Positions 9,460 to 29,473 of a stretch of DNA of 29,473 bases are shown here, piece by piece. The notes below the pieces were generated by a model. That model saw nothing but the letters and a program-made list of their open reading frames with translations. It made no database searches and had not been told where the DNA came from. The DNA is taken from the NCBI GenBank assembly GCA_027310185.1, contig DAIDBH010000009.1, positions 1 to 29,473 of the forward strand, in the 5' to 3' direction. Made by a program: the position numbers and the translations under genes. Each line of letters starts with the position of its first letter. Positions within the stretch are counted from its first letter, which is position 1. The stretch is from Thermoplasmatales archaeon (lineage in GTDB: Archaea; Thermoplasmatota; Thermoplasmata; Thermoplasmatales; Thermoplasmataceae).

Positions 9460-10006
9460 AATAGTTATTTATCATGCCCTTGGAAGTGATTCCACTACAT
9501 AATTTGTTCGGAAAGTTGTTAAATAGCCTATTTATCAAATTATTAATGACTCCACTGATAGAATAATGTTATGAAAGTCCAACAGAACTCACACAACAAT
9601 AGTACTGTTTATTCTTTACCTACAAGGTAGCCCGAATATCCAAATTTTAAACTGGTAACGGTATCCCATTGAATTACTTATTTAGCCTTATCAAAGCGAC
9701 TACAGTTCCCAGAATAACTAAGACTCCTATCATCTGACATTGATCAGAATTATAAGAATTGGTGAGAATCTGAATTACCTATTATACAGAATAATGGGAG
9801 TTAGAGATTAAACTGAAAATAAAATTCCTTTTAAAGTAATGATATGAATCTTATGAGACAAAAAAGGAAAAACAAAACCCCTGCATTACAATGGAAAGAA
9901 TTATGAAGAACTCTCTGAAGAATGTTTTCTTTCGAGAGACTGTGCTCAGCGATGTGGAAGATTTTGATTGCCTTTTGTGGTAGATTTCTTTGTAATATAC
10001 TTCACA

Positions 10007-13014: not shown

Positions 13015-13086
13015 GTGAAAGTACGGAAGCTGCACATAGTTACTGACAATCTTAAAACACATTTTGCAGGATCATTCGAGAAGACC
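13015..13086 (+). mobile_element. IS630-family transposase fragment
   Basis: RKLHIVTDNLKTHFAGSF matches the IS630 hHhVxDNLxTH catalytic segment; abuts the truncated merA. Confidence 0.5.
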
Positions 13087-13105
13087 CATGGCAATGACAG
13101 AAAAA

Positions 13106-14401
13106 GTCCATTGTGCCCCCTCAAAATACCTTCTGGAAGCCTCTCACCAGATATACCTTCCCGGGCATCCAAAGATGAGAGGACTTCCGTCTACAAAGAT
13201 TGAACACGATTTCCCCTCCATCATGGAAGGCCTTAGATCATACGTGGACCATACACGTAAGACAAAATTTGTCGACATGTTGCATAATTACCCAAATGTA
13301 ACTGTGTACGATGGACTGGCCAGGTTCGTGGATAGTAGAACTGTTCAGATAACAGATCAGGGGGGAAAAAGTTAAAGATGAGATTACCGCGCCGAATGTA
13401 CTGATTACAACAGGCTCTCACCCAACTGTTCCGAATATTGAGGGTCTCAAGGAGACTGGTTTCCTTACAAGTGACAGTATCTGGAACGGAACATTGGTAG
13501 CTTGCCGGAAAGCGTAGCGATAATAGGTGGTGGGGCTATAGGACTAGAGATTGGACAGGCTTTGTTGCACTTTGGTTCCAAGGTAACTATAATAGAGGCT
13601 TTGGATATAATTCTTCCACAGAGTGAACCTGAGATAGGACAGGCGCTTATGCTCAGACTTCAGCAGGAAGGTATGAATTTCTATCTCAGGGCAAGAGTCA
13701 GTTCTGTGGGAAAGTCAAACGGACAAAAGTATATTGAGTTCATAACACACAAGGGAAAGGAGAAAATAGAGGTCTCTGAGATAATAGTAGCCACCGGTCG
13801 TCAACCTAACAGTTCAAACCTGAATCTGGAGGCAGCAGAGGTAAAAACTGATGGAAGAGGCCTCATTGTTACCAATGCGAAGATGGAGACAACCTCAAGT
13901 GGGATATATGCCGCCGGAGACTGTGCCTCAAAGACAATGTTCCTGGAGACCCTTGCAGTAAGGGAAAGTGTCGTTGCAGTGGGCAATATGTTCGGGGAGA
14001 GCACTGAGATTAATTACATGTCCGCGACATGGGCCGTATTCACGTACCCACAGGTAGCAGGTGTTGGGATGACCGAGAAGGAATTCTCCAAACTAAAAGG
14101 ATCATGCTCGTGCAGGACGTCTTCATTGGCAAACACAATCTATGCCAGCATAACTGGTGAAACCGATGGAATCATAAAAATCACAATAGAACCGGAAACA
14201 AATAAGATTGTTGGAATGCACATTTTTGCACCCAATGCAACAGATCTCATAATTGAGGGTGCATACGCCGTGAGGTTGGGACTCACGTATGATGATATAG
14301 TTGCATCAGGACGCATATTTCCGTCATATTCTGAAGGAGTAAAACTAGCGGCTCAGTTGTTCATCAGGGACGTTTCTAAAGCGTCATGTTATGTTGAATA
14401 A
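13106..14401 (+). pseudogene. merA: Mercuric reductase pseudogene
   Basis: CAPSKYLLEAS is only the second half of the redox motif. IIGGGAIGLE, ATGRQPN, IYAAGD and CSCR are present. C-terminal SCYVE replaces the Cys-Cys pair. Frameshifts at ~13366-13370 and 13483-13492; N-terminus missing. Confidence 0.85.
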
Positions 14402-14576
14402 ACAGATACAATTTCCCCATTTATTGCTTCTCGAATTACCTATTTTCGGTGATCCTGTTTTATATCTCCCACTTCTGTGAAAAATGTCAATCCGACAATC
14501 AGGTCATCCTCCATTCACTTTAATAATTCTACTGCTTCGACCTATGGCGGAAATTGCCCTTTAGACATCTTGTACA

Positions 14577-22252: not shown

Positions 22253-22309
22253 TGCTAATCCATCCTCAAATTGCAGCATCGAAATCGATATCTTAACATT
22301 TGTTATTTT

Positions 22310-22933
22310 GGTCAACACCCCTTGATAGAAGCACCTCTATCTCATTCACTATGAAGCTGTTATCGACAATTATGGTTTCGTCACCGTCCTTCCTCAAGGT
22401 GAATGATGAGTTTTTTCTTCCTCTTCTCGTTGAATGTCCCTCACTGGAATCATTCCTGTAAAAACTGCACCTTGGGATATGAAGGATCCTCGCAACATCA
22501 CTCACTCTTAATCCCCTGTCTATGTATTCATTAGCAATGCTCATTATTTCCTCACCGTCTTTTTTTTAAAGCATCACTCAGCAGTGCATTCTCCAGCTCC
22601 TTTTCAGCTAGCAGTCTCTTCAGCTTCTCATTCTCCTTCATGATCTTCCTCATTCCTGGTTCCTTCCTCCTGTAGTGTGGTTTCAGGCCATCCAGGCCAA
22701 AGGAATCATAGGATTCCTTCCACTTGTAGTACATACCAGGATCTATGGAGTATTTCCTGCATGTCTCAACAATCCTGCCATTCTCCTTTACATCCTTTAT
22801 GATGGCAAGCTTCTCTTCCGCCTTCCACCTTTGTCGTTCTGTCATTGTTCCCCCCAGACCCCATTCAATTCTTTATTTAATATATATCTGTTACTATAGG
22901 ACAACTTTGTCTCATTATTAAGAGGGCAGACCA
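22310..22933 (-). mobile_element. IS3-family element, left part (terminal IR, intact orfA 22552-22845, truncated orfB)
   Basis: HTH orfA with leucine zipper (ENEKLKRLLAEKELEN); orfB start with VARILHIPRCSFY; end TGGTCTGCCCTCTTAATAATGAGACA (minus strand, 22908-22933). Confidence 0.88.
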
Positions 22934-22948
22934 ATAGCGTTAAAAAAA

Positions 22949-23088
22949 GGTATACTATAGACCCCTACATGAAGTGTAAAAACATATCAAAACAGTACTA
23001 AACCGTAGTAGAATTAACTACGCTTCAGATTTTAGACAAGGAAAAAATAGGGATTAAAAAAAAGATGTTGCATGCAACTATGCAACAC
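22949..23088 (+). repeat. Module 1: ~140-bp non-coding repeat unit with dyad core
   Basis: Shares GGTATACTATAGACCCCTACATGAAG, CGTAGTAGAATTAACTACG, AGATTTTAGAC and ATGCAACAC with 24954-25094. Confidence 0.9.
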
Positions 23089-23114
23089 CTAAAAATTAAT
23101 TAATTGCTTAGATA

Positions 23115-24203
23115 TTGTATATCGTGCCATTCTCAACTGATTACTATAATATTTACAGGGAAATCCTGAATACAGATGACTATCTGAATTACATAGCGAT
23201 CAATGATAAGATAGAGTATGCCACAAAATTAACAGAAGATGAACGAGAAAACCTGCGAAAGAAATACAGTGAACTTCTGGATAGTAGATTTCTTCATCCT
23301 GATTGCAGTTCCATAGATGAGATTAAAGTACCTTATGGCAAAGGAGATTTTACCCGATACAGTTATGAAAAGGCTGAGCAGAAGTGTATTTTTGCGAAAG
23401 AGCTTGGCATGACACTTGCAGATTACATGTTACGAATCGAGAATGACAGTAATTTTATAATAAAGGTAAATCCAGCAAGAAGCAGTGAAAATGCACAGGA
23501 AGTAATCAGGAGATTAAACAGGAGATCAAGTGTACAGAACAGGGAAGAAAATCTTGGTAATATAGATGAAGAACTCATGGTTAAGGATATGAAACTCAAT
23601 ATTAATCAGGAAAATGCCAACAGCACAAAGATAGAAGAACTCGGTGAAAATGTCAACGATCTCCGTGTTCTTATCACTAAACTCCAAAATGATATAAGAA
23701 ATATTCTACAAAGAACCGATACTACAGTTCAACCACCAGCAGCACGTGAACCTGAAAACAGGGCATTGCCACAAAGACCTTCCAGAGTGCAGAGACCGCC
23801 GTTAGAACCGGTGCATAACGAGGAAAGGAAGCCAAAAGTTTTCACGTTCCCCCGTAAAAATGCACGCCCTGCACCAGTGCCGCCACCGCCGGTGAAGCTA
23901 CCTGAACCGGATTACAGTGCCATATTCAATGGAATGCAGAAAACAGACATTTATTACACGCTGTTGTTTTCCATCTTTGTACACTATGATAAATCACTTT
24001 TACGAAAATCTATTATATTACCAGAGCTTACGAATCATATAGTAACGGGTGAAGAATTGGCATATATTTATGATCATAGGTTGGATTACGGATTTTCAGA
24101 ATCGGCGATCAGGATGGATCCTGACAACCCTATTCAGGTTGCAGTTTATTGCAAATATGTGCTGGGGAACAACCCGCACTCGCAGATAAATCACAATGCT
24201 TAA
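23115..24203 (+). CDS. Hypothetical protein (helical N-domain, coiled coil, Pro-rich linker, C-domain)
   Basis: 362-codon ORF with TTG start directly after module 1; no family recognised. Confidence 0.75.
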   Translation: MYIVPFSTDYYNIYREILNTDDYLNYIAINDKIEYATKLTEDERENLRKKYSELLDSRFLHPDCSSIDEIKVPYGKGDFTRYSYEKAEQKCIFAKELGMTLADYMLRIENDSNFIIKVNPARSSENAQEVIRRLNRRSSVQNREENLGNIDEELMVKDMKLNINQENANSTKIEELGENVNDLRVLITKLQNDIRNILQRTDTTVQPPAAREPENRALPQRPSRVQRPPLEPVHNEERKPKVFTFPRKNARPAPVPPPPVKLPEPDYSAIFNGMQKTDIYYTLLFSIFVHYDKSLLRKSIILPELTNHIVTGEELAYIYDHRLDYGFSESAIRMDPDNPIQVAVYCKYVLGNNPHSQINHNA

Positions 24204-24459
24204 ATGCATTTAAGGATTTTACAGAGGGATGGAACTATGGAAAATAAAGTGCTATTAGATACCAAGCAGGAAGCGACAGAACTTATCCAGCAATAATAGT
24301 TTACGTTAAATGAATAGCTTGCCATAATATTAGCAGAAATTCACACTTTCGGATTTATTCTTTATTTTTTCCTAATTTCATGCCGTCTAACAGCAATGAG
24401 AGCAAACGAAGGAATGATCGACGGATCTACTTATCCCATATGGTGTTTCAGAGAGTGTC

Positions 24460-24945
24460 ACTTAACGTGTAACCAGGTGGTAACTGAGGTATCGATCTTA
24501 GTGTAAACTGGTGAAAGACCCCATTTTTGCATTGTTTTTAGAGTTTCTGATTTTCTTTACTATTTACATGTCCATGGGTGTTAAGTTACATGTAACCAGT
24601 AGTCAGTTTACAAAGTTACATTTGTAAAGATGTAAACTGGCATGTAACATGGTGATCACGCATTGTAACTGTACCTATTTTAACCTATGAATTGCTTGCT
24701 CTGTGTTAAATCTACGATCCGGCAGGCTTCAGTATTACAGTGATCAATTTTGTTGTTTTTTTAAGATTTTTATGTTGTGTGGTTTACATCGCTTTACATG
24801 TAATTAACATGTAATTAACATGTAACCAGTAGATCGCTTACAGTGTAAACTGGTAAAAAGCCCGATAAATACGCTGTTTTTAGTGTTCGTAAGTTTACAT
24901 GTAAGTTACATGTAAGCAGTGTAAAGTGGTGTAAACTTGTAAACT
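24460..24945. repeat. Dense TGTAA/TTACA motif array with internal duplication
   Basis: About 25 TGTAA/TTACA pentamers in ~480 bp (hand count); GTTACATGTAAC palindrome at 24585-24596; tandem 11-bp ACATGTAATTA at 24796-24825. Confidence 0.9.
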
Positions 24946-24953
24946 TAAAAAAT

Positions 24954-25094
24954 GGTATACTATAGACCCCTACATGAAGGGTAAGATGACCCTAAAACAG
25001 ACCTATGTCGTAGTAGAATTAACTACGATTGAGATTTTAGACGGTAAAAAAAATTGGATAAAAAAATAGAGGCGTTACATGTAACATGCAACAC
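24954..25094 (+). repeat. Module 2: second copy of the ~140-bp unit
   Basis: Imperfect direct repeat of 22949-23088; dyad at 25009-25027; GTTACATGTAAC at 25074-25085. Confidence 0.9.
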
Positions 25095-25135
25095 TTGGAA
25101 AGTTCTATACAGAATTTATACGAAAGTATAGGGAG

Positions 25136-25375
25136 TACATATGGAAGCATTCAACTCGATCCTGGAAAGGGAGGTAATAAGAAGATTCGAGTTTGAAGGT
25201 CTTGAGGAAGCGAAATCCACAATCGGAAGGTATGTGGATTTCTATAACAATGAAAGATTGCACAGTGCCATAGGATATATTACACCATGGGAGATGAACA
25301 GGAAATGTATGGAAAGGATTCAGAAAGCTTGAAATCTTATAAGACAATATTGTCTCCAATTAGGGGAGCTAACCA
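25136..25375 (+). mobile_element. IS3-family element, right part (orfB C-terminus plus terminal IR)
   Basis: EAFNSILERE...YVDFYNNERLHSAIGYITP; end TGTCTCCAATTAGGGGAGCTAACCA (25351-25375) resembles the IR at 22908-22933. Confidence 0.88.
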
Positions 25376-25827
25376 TTGTTATGATCATTTTAAGGTAGAC
25401 TGTAAACGTCAGATGCTTTTTACAATTTAAACATCTTCAATATCTGAAGCATTGACTAAGACTGGGAATATAGGGAACAACAAAGGCTTTTTCCATTCTA
25501 TTCATATCTCTAGCTGAATGGAGTTCTTTAGGGAGAACTGTTAAAACACTCTAAATCCTGATACTTCCTTTTTTCCATCATGGAGCACACAATAATTTCT
25601 GTTAAGTTATATTTACAAGGTACACTTGTGCAGTTGTCATTTTCATGTTGTCTATCTTCTGTCTAACTTTGTTCCAGTCAACTTTTTTCTCTTCTGTGAA
25701 TATTTTTCAAGGTAGCCGAAAAATATAGTCGTAGTAGAATGTACTAAGGTTAAGCTATACTTTCCTCACTTTATACACGTATACTTAGGCTAACATGGAA
25801 CCTATTTTTAGTCACATTATTTTATGT

Positions 25828-25909
25828 TAGACAAAACTTAGACAGGAAATAGACATGAATTAGACGGGACTTAGACAGCAGGTAGACATGGGTTAGACAA
25901 TTATTAGAC
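25828..25909 (+). repeat. Eight TAGAC motifs at exact 11-bp periodicity (iteron/centromere-like), part of module 3
   Basis: TAGAC starts at 25828, 25839, 25850, 25861, 25872, 25883, 25894 and 25905; the intervening 6-mers vary. Confidence 0.95.
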
Positions 25910-26068
25910 ACCAGTTTAATGAAGTGGGAAGACCAATAATAAACACAATCTTATTTTCAGTGTGGCATACCGGATATTTATAAAGGGGAGACATGGTTTA
26001 AATCAAAAGATTCTCCTTGATTTCATGGAATGACTTTATTTGAATACTATCTCCTAGAACCATGTGAG

Positions 26069-26250
26069 TCATAAAGCACAATTTCCTTTCTGGTCTTCTA
26101 TCATCTGGAATTTCTCAAGTTCTAGAAGCATCCTCTCCAGGAAATACTTCTTCATCAGTCCTGTTGAGATCATTCCCCTCATGAGTGCATTTTTTATAAT
26201 GAGGGAAAGGAAGAACATAAATATGGTTCCCATAATGGTGGGTTCGTTCC
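26069..26250 (-). mobile_element. IS1634-like transposase C-terminal fragment
   Basis: TIMGTIFMFFLSLIIKNALM...KKYFLERMLLELEK...IEDQKG resembles archaeal IS1634 C-termini as I recall them. Confidence 0.6.
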
Positions 26251-26486
26251 TCTTCCTGAGGTGATCATAAACCATGCACTCCTTCCTGCACAATGGGCAG
26301 CGAAACTTTGATCCCTTCTCATGAGCTATGTAAATGTCAACAGTCTTGTTCGCAGAATCAAGGGATACTCTTTCAACCTTCCATGGTGACTTCATATCAA
26401 GCAGTGTAGAATATAGCTGGCATTCGTCCATGAAATAATATAACTAAGGATTGGATAAAATTACCCACATGAAAGTGGGAAGAACC
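26251..26486 (-). mobile_element. ISL3-family element left end and transposase N-terminus
   Basis: LL.MKSPWKVERV...CPLC...VYDH zinc-finger start; terminal GGTTCTTCCCACTT (minus strand) beginning at 26486. Confidence 0.8.
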
Positions 26487-26498
26487 AATATTATTTCC

Positions 26499-26726
26499 TT
26501 ATTTACTAAACGTTTGTTCATTAATAATATTTTCTTGGGTCTCTTTAACATTTTGAGGATAAATTGGTAAATTAAGTATAGATAAAAAATGGTTTACATC
26601 CCTTTCGGAAATAAAATTCTGCAAAAATTGGCAAATTAGGTTGAAAAGCGGAGATTGTGCTTTGTAGTTCTCGCTTCTGAGTAAATATAGTTCAAAAGAA
26701 TTTACCCACACCGAACTAAGGTCCAT
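26499..26726 (-). CDS. Short hypothetical ORF or gene remnant
   Basis: 75-codon ORF co-oriented with and just downstream of the PAPS-reductase-like fragment. Confidence 0.3.
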   Translation of the reverse strand: MDLSSVWVNSFELYLLRSENYKAQSPLFNLICQFLQNFISERDVNHFLSILNLPIYPQNVKETQENIINEQTFSK

Positions 26727-26746: not shown

Positions 26747-27118
26747 TTATTCTTCCATACTAACTAGTTTTTCTGAAAATGGATAAACAATCTTCATTTC
26801 GGCAGGATACTTCTTCCCTATAGACTTCAAGAATGTATGAGCAACCACAGACATTTGAGGGAACTCCATCATTGTGCCTGAATAGGTAATGTTCAGGTCA
26901 ATATCAGGATGGACTGTTTTCATGTACAGTGATAGAACCACAAGGGCGGTACTATAATTTCCTCCAGAATAGGTGACAATCCTTCTTTTATTCCTTTTGT
27001 AAAGTTGTTCTAAAATGTTTATGCTTTCCTGGAACTTCTCACTAAAGGTATTGCTAATATAAGAAGGAAGACGAGATGTGTCATACTTCCCTATAGGTTC
27101 CCCTTGAATTTCCATCAT
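26747..27118 (-). pseudogene. Truncated PAPS-reductase-family (DndC/SspD-like) gene
   Basis: IVTYSGGNYSTAL is a degenerate SGGKDS PP-loop; ITYSGTMMEFP corresponds to the DTxxE motif; only 123 aa. Confidence 0.7.
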
Positions 27119-28255: not shown

Positions 28256-29473
28256 GCTTCAATAGGGCCATGATTTTTCAATCATGGATAGACCGAATGC
28301 CATATAGCATAATTTTTAACAAATATGCTTCAATAGGGCCATGATTTTTCAATCATGGATAGTTATCAAAGCCAGGGAAATACCCGATGCTTCAAGAAGG
28401 GCTTCAATAGGGCCATGATTTTTCAATCATGGATAGTTTGTGCTATCACCAAGAACGCATCGGGAAAGATATAGCTTCAATAGGGCCATGATTTTTCAAT
28501 CATGGATAGCCGCTCGAACAATTAAAAATTGTCAAGCCCACCCAATGCTTCAATAGGGCCATGATTTTTCAATCATGGATAGATCCAGTTGCCCGTAAGG
28601 GCGGAGATGCAAGAATGTATAGCTTCAATAGGGCCATGATTTTTCAATCATGGATAGTATCCTATCTATCTATCTATCTCTATGTGATAAACATGAATGT
28701 GCTTCAATAGGGCCATGATTTTTCAATCATGGATAGGTACGGACTACGTCATCAAGAGATGCCCTAATAAGGACGCTTCAATAGGGCCATGATTTTTCAA
28801 TCATGGATAGACAATTATCATATTGAGGAATATGGCAAACATAACCGAAGCTTCAATAGGGCCATGATTTTTCAATCATGGATAGACAATATTATCCTGT
28901 CACCTATTCGGTCAAATGGATCTGGCTTCAATAGGGCCATGATTTTTCAATCATGGATAGCTGTGTATGTAAGAAAGCATCCTGCTTTCACGTTGTGTAG
29001 CTTCAATAGGGCCATGATTTTTCAATCATGGATAGGGGAATGGCGGTATAACCTGCGTGTGATACACAGTTCCTGCTTCAATAGGGCCATGATTTTTCAA
29101 TCATGGATAGCCCTTTTTATCTTTAGGATTTTCCTTCACCGTAGGCAGCTTCAATAGGGCCATGATTTTTCAATCATGGATAGGCGAGAATATGTGGGAC
29201 TGCAAGAGCATGCAATGTGGCTTCAATAGGGCCATGATTTTTCAATCATGGATAGATCCTTCACAATATTCTGACATCCGGGGGATACCTTGGCTTCAAT
29301 AGGGCCATGATTTTTCAATCATGGATAGAATAATGTCATTAACCCAACTAATATTATCATGGTAGCTTCAATAGGGCCATGATTTTTCAATCATGGATAG
29401 TGTGGAAACTTACCCAGAGGTTGTGGATTGTCTTATTGCTTCAATAGGGCCATGATTTTTCAATCATGGATAG
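28256..29473 (-). CRISPR. CRISPR array, 17 identical 36-bp repeats and 16 spacers (35-43 bp), runs to the window end; type I-G(I-U)-like repeat
   Basis: Plus-strand repeat GCTTCAATAGGGCCATGATTTTTCAATCATGGATAG. On the minus strand it has an 8-bp stem CCATGATT-GAAA-AATCATGG and a 3' ATTGAAGC handle, which implies minus-strand transcription. Confidence 0.99.

Follow-up and report, generated by a model that had tools for sequence, protein, structure and literature searches.

We describe a family of non-coding DNA modules from one Thermoplasmata genus, three of which lie near the end of a 29,473-nucleotide contig of a Thermoplasmatales archaeon (DAIDBH010000009.1, assembly GCA_027310185.1); this whole contig of 29.5 kb is referred to here as the window. 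In each module a short inverted dyad, the core, is accompanied by repeated copies of a motif that is specific to the module type. The modules are a real, well-defined family of non-coding sites, restricted within the sequences searched and comprising 12 cores at 8 loci in 4 of 17 genomes of the genus. Because copies of the family break and rejoin at the core, we favor the reading that the modules are attP-like joined-ends or recombination sites, with arm arrays doubling as promoter operators, and give this reading a probability of roughly 0.4.

Modules with one core and exchangeable motifs

The layout proposed by an earlier reading of the window, made from its letters alone (the sequence-only reading), was recovered at all three modules and is accurate in each point that could be checked. 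The dyad CGTAGT-N7-ACTACG is exact at 23004-23022 and 25009-25027 and carries one mismatch at 25730-25748; these three occurrences compare with 0.02 expected in the window, and none of 100 shuffles reached three. Modules 1 and 2 form a direct repeat of ~150 bp with 79-80% identity and a spacing of 2005 bp. The short motif copies claimed beyond each core are present, namely TGCAAC three times at 23067-23088, GTTACATGTAAC at 25074-25085, and GTCTA at 25650 and 25661, as is the large array claimed on the other side of the core in modules 2 and 3, which was detected both by 6-mer enrichment and by Tandem Repeats Finder at a period of 11 (25827-25910 with 7.6 copies, and 24796-24825). Tandem Repeats Finder also gave period 11 for the proximal pair of module 3 at 25649-25669. 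Relative to the genome 6-mer background, CATGTA was observed 15 times near module 2 (0.56 expected) and TAGACA nine times near module 3 (0.36 expected), and within the 1.88-Mb genome such motif clusters are otherwise confined to the neighborhood of other core copies. The eight TAGAC copies start at 25828, 25839 and so on to 25905 with an exact 11-bp spacing. The matching flank of module 1 has been lost, as suggested, to an element of the IS3 insertion sequence (IS) family, which ends at 22933, 71 bp before core 1. The earlier placement of module 3 on the minus strand is supported, since it is colinear from -162 to +99 with a copy in another genome of the genus (G086), and since the layout of array and inverted copies and the A-rich strand of its spacer agree with that orientation. 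The parts of the three modules are the following.

22940..23003, plus strand: pre-core spacer of module 1, homologous to 24946-25008 (79-80% direct repeat with module 2)
23004..23022, plus strand: core dyad of module 1, CGTAGT-AGAATTA-ACTACG
23023..23066, plus strand: A-rich spacer of module 1, 73% AT and 51% A
23067..23088, plus strand: proximal copies of module 1, palindrome GTTGCATGCAAC and TATGCAAC; TGCAAC inverted at +63, direct at +69 and +77
24468..24945, plus strand: array of module 2, 21 copies of TGTAA[AC] in both orientations with exact 11-bp stretches, the last three direct at -89, -79 and -71
24946..25008, plus strand: pre-core spacer of module 2
25009..25027, plus strand: core dyad of module 2
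25028..25072, plus strand: A-rich spacer of module 2, 76% AT and 51% A
25073..25094, plus strand: proximal copies of module 2, palindrome GTTACATGTAAC and ATGCAAC
25649..25669, minus strand: proximal pair of module 3, 11 bp apart and inverted relative to the array
25670..25729, minus strand: spacer of module 3, A-rich on the minus strand
25730..25748, minus strand: core of module 3, CTTAGT-ACATTCT-ACTACG, with a CT-type left and a CG-type right half-site
25749..25826, minus strand: pre-core spacer of module 3, colinear with the G086 copy
25827..25910, minus strand: array of module 3, eight copies of TTAGACA (TGTCTAA on the module strand) with an exact 11-bp period

Three further cores were found by the core search in the genome of the window (G000), one on contig C5 (position 1554) and two on contig C17 (position 29869, C17a, and position 31843, C17b). 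Among the other genomes, G075 has four cores at three loci, and G077 and G086 have one each. With all copies oriented so that the large array lies upstream, and with positions counted relative to the core, a common plan emerges. In every complete copy, 4-9 direct copies of a type-specific motif of 6-8 bp, often with an exact 11-bp period, end 71-88 bp before the core; then follow the 6-7-6 dyad, an A-rich spacer of 45-65 bp, and two motif copies at +63 to +94, at least one of which is inverted. Five motif types are carried by the one conserved core with the distances kept. The idea of a single architecture with exchangeable motifs thus holds across the 12 cores, and the gene start that had been counted as part of it is present only in some copies. 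The arrangement in individual copies is given below.

Module 3 (minus strand): array of eight at -161 to -84 in exact 11-bp steps; proximal copies inverted at +83 and +94
G086: array in the same registers as module 3, -172 to -84; proximal copies inverted at +82 and +93
C17b: nine copies of TTG[CTA]ATTA at -185 to -88, with 11-bp steps between the last six; right arm belonging to a different type
G075C and G077: arrays ending at -87 and -86, respectively; proximal copies not applicable
G075A: TGTCACA to -71 in mixed orientation; proximal copies inverted at +63 and +72
Module 2: TGTAA[AC] to -71 in mixed orientation; proximal palindrome at +65/+71
Module 1: array lost to IS3; TGCAAC at +63, +69 and +77

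The same motif stands on both sides of the core in five complete modules. Both proximal copies are inverted in three of these (module 3, G086, G075A), and in the other two (module 2, C17a) they make up a palindromic pair; the direct arm copies overall span -71 to -185. Orthologous copies of different species keep their registers (-84 and +83/+94 in module 3, -84 and +82/+93 in G086). These two copies are ~70% identical and unrelated outside the colinear part, and because their colinearity stops at -162 and +99 we take the unit to be ~260 bp long. The post-core spacer is 64-80% AT (genome 60%), and in 10 of 10 copies measured the bias to A falls on the same strand. Across all motif types only the core is conserved (alignment A2), and its half-sites change in pairs, CGTAGT with ACTACG and CTTAGT with ACTAAG; one copy is a perfect 9-1-9 palindrome.

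The distribution of the family was examined with the core pattern in 169 genomes of the order, with a sequence-only covariance model in 103 genomes of the family, and in 185,579 species genomes. The sequence-only reading had proposed a search for the core with flanking arrays in other Thermoplasmatales genomes, and such sites are present, as the 12 cores of four congeneric genomes; no related copies were found outside the genus in the order-wide pattern search, the family-wide model search, the species genomes, or the viral and metagenome contigs. Within the genome of the window, nhmmer recovered only the six known copies. Copies are 69-84% alike and bear different motifs, except for the C5 and C17a pair (90%) and the G075C and G077 pair (97%). 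The units are neither the ends of a known IS or miniature inverted-repeat transposable element (MITE) nor coding repeats, the two origins that the earlier reading had named as alternatives to its own.

Several matches found along the way do not belong to the family. The core pattern has 45 matches in genome contigs, and flanks agree only in L073, which is the G077 contig; pattern matches in G027, G035 and G125 lie in coding DNA without flank similarity. The covariance model gave weak scores in other genera, 17.9 bits in G102 and 17.3 bits in G163, which are scores only, from loci that were not inspected. The core string has no match in viral contigs and seven in metagenome contigs, all with unrelated flanks. 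Four TAGACA copies at 11-bp steps have 57 matches in viral contigs, none of which fits the core profile, and 18 of them, with at least five copies, are perfect tandem repeats in unrelated contexts. Neither the CATGTAA array pattern nor relatives of the module-adjacent genes ORF362 and P0003 were found in viral contigs.

The core as a junction and the readings weighed

G075C and G077 have a TTGNATTA array in common; their identity is 97% over -154 to +10 and ends there, the sequences beyond being unrelated. Their left sides agree at 98% and their right sides at 53%, at the level of a shuffle baseline of 54 ± 5. G075C retains the left half-site CTTAGT and the spacer AGAATCT, which is that of its motif type, as in C17b, and has lost the right half-site alone; no displaced right half was found within 7 kb. 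There are also weaker signs of reassortment at the core: C17b joins a TTGNATTA array to a right arm resembling the CATGTAA type (left 50-58%, right 69-71%), in module 3 the half-sites are of two types, and in G075 a complete module is followed 100 bp later by a second core, whose right arm of 230 bp is shared with G075B. The junction claim rests on the pair of G075C and G077, because the right-arm identities are near the AT-rich baseline. Among the functions listed in the sequence-only reading (origin, centromere, recombinase core with arm sites), the evidence leans to the third, since near-identical copies diverge at the core; no cognate recombinase, Rep or Par was found for any of them.

The architecture, its conservation under motif swap, the break at the core in one pair of copies and the RNA contigs of the gene after module 1 are observed; protein binding, looping, recombination, the enzyme class and the operator role are inferred. 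We hypothesize that each module is a ~260-bp protein-assembly site left by a family of small mobile elements, in which an element-specific DNA-binding protein would coat the phased array and bind the two copies across the core, at least one of them inverted. The A-rich spacer would aid the DNA to fold back, so that the conserved dyad would come to lie at a loop tip. A looped nucleoprotein complex of this kind, built by a type-specific protein around a common core, is suggested by the fixed distances together with the copies in opposite orientation, the A-rich spacer and the conserved dyad. The dyad, with its two 6-bp inverted half-sites and 7-bp spacer, may be the crossover point of a site-specific recombinase; the module would then be the joined-ends (attP-like) form of the element, and its arrays the arm-type or accessory sites. 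The copies proximal to the core, which adjoin the likely promoter of the following gene, probably double as its operator. Of the features known from attP, inverted half-sites around a 7-bp spacer are present in the 12 cores and arm repeats in opposite orientation in five complete modules. A single junction, that of G075C, looks like an arm with half a core attached.

Several observations weigh against the attP-like reading. No cognate recombinase linked to the sites was found at the 8 loci, and an integrase or integrase-like gene lies within 1 kb at only two of them. At the C5 locus this is a Phage_integrase pseudogene, ~680 bp away from the core, and at the C17b locus it is P0003, which ends 300 bp from the core and belongs to a large Thermoplasmatota family labelled as site-specific integrases in the sources; the other 24 loci fetched with the P0003 family in the genus have no module in ~1.5 kb on each side. 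Most copies are complete two-armed chromosomal sites and not the split attL/attR pairs expected after integration, and for the single half-site junction neither a partner site nor an empty attB was found. The right flank of G075C, used as an empty-site query, gave patchy repeats only, and no att-like direct repeats were seen around the C17 island. The right-arm identities of 69-71% are only ~3 standard deviations above an AT-rich baseline whose maximum is 70%, and the truncation at a palindrome could also come from illegitimate recombination. No joints, circles or coverage steps were seen in the DNA runs, as represented by assembled contigs only. Moreover, 8-9 contiguous sites at an 11-bp period exceed any arm-site set known to us and are more like iterons or centromere repeats.

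This last likeness points to the main rival, an iteron-type origin or a partition centromere of integrated plasmid-like elements, with an autoregulated promoter, an explanation that we regard as possible but doubtful. The array would be the target of an initiator or centromere-binding protein specific to the element, the operator of that protein's own promoter would consist of the inverted proximal copies, and the dyad with the A-rich stretch would serve as a host-factor site and an easily bent or melted region. It would account for the exact 11-bp direct repeats (eight in module 3, six of nine in C17b), the A-rich spacer of 64-80% AT, and the presence of several motif types in one genome, as for compatible replicons; inverted or palindromic copies stand directly upstream of an AT-rich, TATA-like stretch and the ORF362 start, RNA contigs start ~60 bp after the module, and the layout is similar to those of pSC101, R6K and R1 parC. 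It is also consistent with P0002, a helix-turn-helix (HTH) gene divergent beside the TTGNATTA array in two species, G000 and G075, of which the G075 version is broken; the proteins are 30% identical and the motif is kept. However, no Rep, ParA, ParM, TubZ or Orc1 gene lies beside any of the 8 loci (Pfam, PHROGs, NCBIfam). The neighboring candidates ORF362, P0002 and P0007 have no detectable relationship to each other or to known families. The chromosomal orc1/cdc6 loci, inspected by eye, lack similar arrays, no extrachromosomal copy was found in viral or metagenome collections, and a parting of near-identical copies exactly at the dyad is not predicted by this explanation.

If the modules had no role in replication or recombination, they could be purely transcriptional control regions of mobile-element and defense-island genes, with the arrays as activating or operator sites of element-encoded regulators and the dyad as a site for a shared regulator. 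The proximal copies do abut a likely promoter, with RNA contigs over the downstream gene, P0002 is divergent from its array in both species, and 6 of 8 loci have defense genes within ~5 kb; in four copies such a gene follows the module on its own strand. We consider this unlikely all the same. What lies downstream varies, some copies having no gene there, and in G077 the module points at the 3' end of a type I restriction-modification operon that runs convergently. For a promoter, a site of 260 bp in which a strictly conserved dyad is combined with up to nine phased repeats is elaborate, and the break at the core is left unexplained. Furthermore, no module stands upstream of the orthologous cas3 in G075, so the module does not form part of the cas promoter as such. 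Abutted transposon ends, as in a circle or tandem junction, with subterminal arrays as transposase sites and the dyad as terminal inverted repeats with a short spacer, would have the same topology as the attP-like reading, namely sites of opposite orientation on two sides of the dyad, and would fit the IS3-family tips that abut two modules and the one copy truncated at the dyad. This we judge improbable: no transposase is consistently adjacent, the IS3, IS110, IS256 and DDE pieces being other, separately repeated elements, no target-site duplications were seen, and there is no near-identical multi-copy set, the six copies in the genome being mostly 69-84% alike. Least credible of all, with hardly any weight from us, is a structured RNA gene or a hairpin signal in single-stranded DNA, for instance a rolling-circle double-strand origin with a nick hairpin. 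The conserved stem has one compensatory pair, and the combination of a constant core and changing repeats is reminiscent of the nic and bind loci in the pMV158 family, but as single-stranded DNA the core forms a weak hairpin (-5.1 and -5.2 kcal/mol in two copies) and the other two folded cores do not surpass shuffled sequence (z +0.27 and -1.24). The core therefore fits better as a duplex site for two inverted protein subunits than as a hairpin. In addition, Rfam gave 0 matches at gathering thresholds over the whole window, no transfer RNA (tRNA) was found in the window or in four related loci, and Pfam detected no HUH Rep gene in any neighborhood.

Returning to the attP-like reading, two pairs of cores on the same strand are each ~2 kb apart with one gene between them, 2005 bp with ORF362 in the window and 1974 bp with P0002 between C17a and C17b. 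A more specific form of the reading, in which the cores would be recombination joints of an archaeal cassette system, is in our view a long shot. Units of ~2 kb (right arm, one gene, left array), each with a DNA-binding specificity of its own, would stand in head-to-tail stacks, and a recombinase supplied in trans would reshuffle them at the 19-bp dyad; the system would populate defense islands around restriction-modification loci and loci of clustered regularly interspaced short palindromic repeats (CRISPR) with cas genes (CRISPR-Cas). If true, it would be a functional parallel to integron cassettes with an unrelated site design.

Separately, cores 2 and 3 lie in modules of inverted orientation, 721 bp apart, with an IS3 remnant between them. 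The segment between them could invert if the cores recombine, and no such inversion was seen in the assembled DNA contigs.

Relation to known systems and significance

The attP site of a lambda-type heterobivalent tyrosine integrase is ~240-260 bp long and combines inverted core half-sites around a spacer of ~7 bp with arm sites of opposite orientation and bendable AT-rich DNA. The modules are similar in size, in the inverted half-sites and spacer, in the two-arm repeats of opposite orientation and in the AT-rich DNA between arm and core. They differ in having up to nine contiguous sites at an 11-bp period on one arm and no linked cognate integrase, in being complete chromosomal sites and not attL/attR pairs, in the lack of any tRNA target found, and in their archaeal host. 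Iteron origins such as pSC101, R6K gamma and P1 oriR consist of tandem direct repeats of ~17-22 bp with an AT-rich or bent segment and inverted copies at the rep promoter. The modules share with them the tandem repeats, the AT-rich or bent segment, the inverted copies at an adjacent promoter and the use of specific repeats in a common layout; they depart from them in their 11-bp unit, the lack of a Rep gene, the conserved dyad between array and operator, and the mosaic junction at the dyad. In the centromeres R1 parC, bound by ParR, and tubC, bound by TubR, a promoter core is flanked on either side by arrays of 11-12 bp repeats, to which a small protein binds co-operatively. Arrays of 11-bp repeats on both sides are found in the modules as well, yet no ParM, TubZ or ParA gene is nearby, the sides are unequal (8-9 versus 2), and there is a central dyad. 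Because an attP assignment lacks a linked integrase, and an origin or centromere assignment lacks an adjacent initiator or nucleoside triphosphatase, we file the modules as sites that work like attP or iteron-origin-type sites and not as members of either family.

The accessible part of a study on KplE1 (PMC2951348) describes an att arm which overlaps and regulates a promoter, a bacterial precedent for arm sites with an operator role. For archaea, the accessible part of PMC5861418 treats integrases of the SSV, pNOB8 and SNJ2 types with short core repeats, of 14 bp in SNJ2. The core string was absent from the literature searched, no complex DNA site assembled from several proteins in this manner turned up there, and keyword searches for comparable archaeal sites brought up only bacterial prophage work and Thermococcales plasmids.

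The family constitutes a natural experiment, with one core, fixed distances, five motifs, and candidate binding proteins beside some arrays. Specificity swapping is directly testable, since the conserved core carries five motifs and candidate proteins adjoin arrays. If the core is a crossover site, the modules would represent att sites of archaea that are equipped with arm arrays, a design absent from the systems that the accessible part of PMC5861418 names, and would help to explain how small gene cassettes accumulate beside CRISPR-Cas and restriction loci. If they are instead origins or centromeres, they would define functions by which unknown plasmids are maintained, in a group for which hardly any genetic tools exist.

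Neighboring genes, transcription and the window

The mobile-element context that had been suggested from the sequence is supported by IS pieces, an integrase pseudogene, an integrase-family gene and defense islands near copies of the family. Besides the modules themselves, the following features were recorded in the module region of the window.

22293..22933, minus strand: truncated IS3-family copy (orfA at 22552-22845) whose tip cuts the left arm of module 1 at -71 (Pfam HTH_Tnp_1; BLAST to a fuller copy on contig C18)
23089..23123, plus strand: AT-rich stretch, a putative transcription factor B recognition element (BRE) and TATA box of a leaderless ORF362 promoter, suggested by sequence and RNA contig starts
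23124..24203, plus strand: ORF362, 359 amino acids, GTG start at 23124, between core 1 and the array of module 2 (database entry and homologue starts)
25137..25375, plus strand: IS3-family remnant, C-terminal end of rve and right tip (Pfam rve_2 and rve_3; 95% match to the C18 copy)
25919..25938, no strand assigned: solo sequence resembling an IS3 terminal repeat, abutting the distal end of the module 3 array (85% match to 22917-22936)

The remnant at 25137..25375 replaces the former sequence after module 2. Near other modules, a stretch of ~250 bp directly after module C17a (L047 7975-8235, C17 29975-30235), bounded by the inverted repeats GATCTGCTCC and GGAGCAGATC, looks by eye like a MITE. 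A conserved non-coding end of an IS110-family element (90% over 69 bp) lies near two modules, at C5 1-170 and at ~9640-9710 of the G075 locus L046; in G075 it replaces the array 48 bp before the core, beside a DEDD transposase fragment.

The start of ORF362 at GTG 23124 agrees with the 359-amino-acid database entry and with homologues that begin with MAFSTDYY. Only two close and two remote homologues occur among billions of proteins, and the remote ones match the N-terminal 200 amino acids only. The protein has a conserved N-terminal domain of ~200 amino acids, a coiled coil, a proline-rich linker and a small C-terminal domain, and belongs to no Pfam, PHROGs or NCBIfam family; a weak PADLOC match to Cas11a (19 bits), which looks sub-threshold, was disregarded. 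P0007 of G086 encodes 645 amino acids with an HTH and a coiled coil and lies downstream of the module. AlphaFold models of ORF362 and P0002 were poor (predicted local distance difference test scores of 44.6 and 49.4) and unusable for fold comparison.

RNA contigs 23150-24523 and 23166-24383, from two metatranscriptome runs of one sample, extend over ORF362, starting ~60 bp beyond the proximal copies in module 1 and reaching the margin of the array in module 2. In one run the depth was 454 compared with 49-95 for neighbors, contig depth being a poor measure of expression. The AT-rich sequence at 23089-23105 would sit at the place of a TATA box for a leaderless ORF362 transcript. As for the modules and arrays, the listed RNA contigs cover only the array edges at 24468-24523 and 25855-25909, which is no proof that the rest is silent.

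Among the defense genes around the family, the cas operon directly follows the C5 module, CRISPR arrays adjoin the window modules and G075A, and other neighbors comprise MvaI/BcnI and type I restriction-modification genes, a C5 methylase, an HNH gene, and weak SIR2-like and AbiV-like matches. The first 22 kb of the window hold ordinary chromosomal genes, among them those for an M1 peptidase, threonyl-tRNA synthetase, an MMPL transporter and an ABC transporter, and the final 7 kb hold the IS3 pieces, the three modules, a few orphan open reading frames (ORFs), a fragment similar to defense proteins of the 3'-phosphoadenosine-5'-phosphosulfate (PAPS) reductase type, and a CRISPR array. This array has at least 17 repeats of ~36 bp, from 28255 to the end of the window at 29473, and the RNA contigs covering it are deep. 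The same repeat occurs on the other strand at the end of contig C5 (locus L048, 11405-11438), after a cas3-to-cas2 operon with cas3, three large cas genes, a cas4/cas1-sized gene and cas2, all named from gene order and orthology to G075 and not from a family search; the order matches what we take to be that of type I-G. Since both contigs end in the same CRISPR repeat, they are probably joined through the array. If so, inward-facing modules would bracket the CRISPR locus, with modules 1 and 2 at its window end and the C5 module, ahead of cas3, at its opposite end.

Between module 3 and the CRISPR array, an ORF of 123 amino acids (26747-27118, minus strand) has weak PADLOC matches to SspD, BrxP and DndC (E-values of 7e-5 to 4e-3) and is probably a degraded fragment of a PAPS-reductase-type defense gene. 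A repeat of ~250 bp at 26250-26501, over the start of the ORF at 26069-26431, recurs with 90-92% identity at the ends of contigs C12, C13 and C14 and terminates at about 26470-26500 in a tip related to the IS3-type terminal sequence; it looks like an unassembled multi-copy IS. Farther upstream, at 13084-14434, a truncated gene for a pyridine-nucleotide disulphide oxidoreductase encodes a product more than 90% identical to that of a gene ~10 kb from the G075 CRISPR locus. This protein identity is far above the 30-53% between the cas proteins of the same two genomes, which suggests a recent transfer of the oxidoreductase gene.

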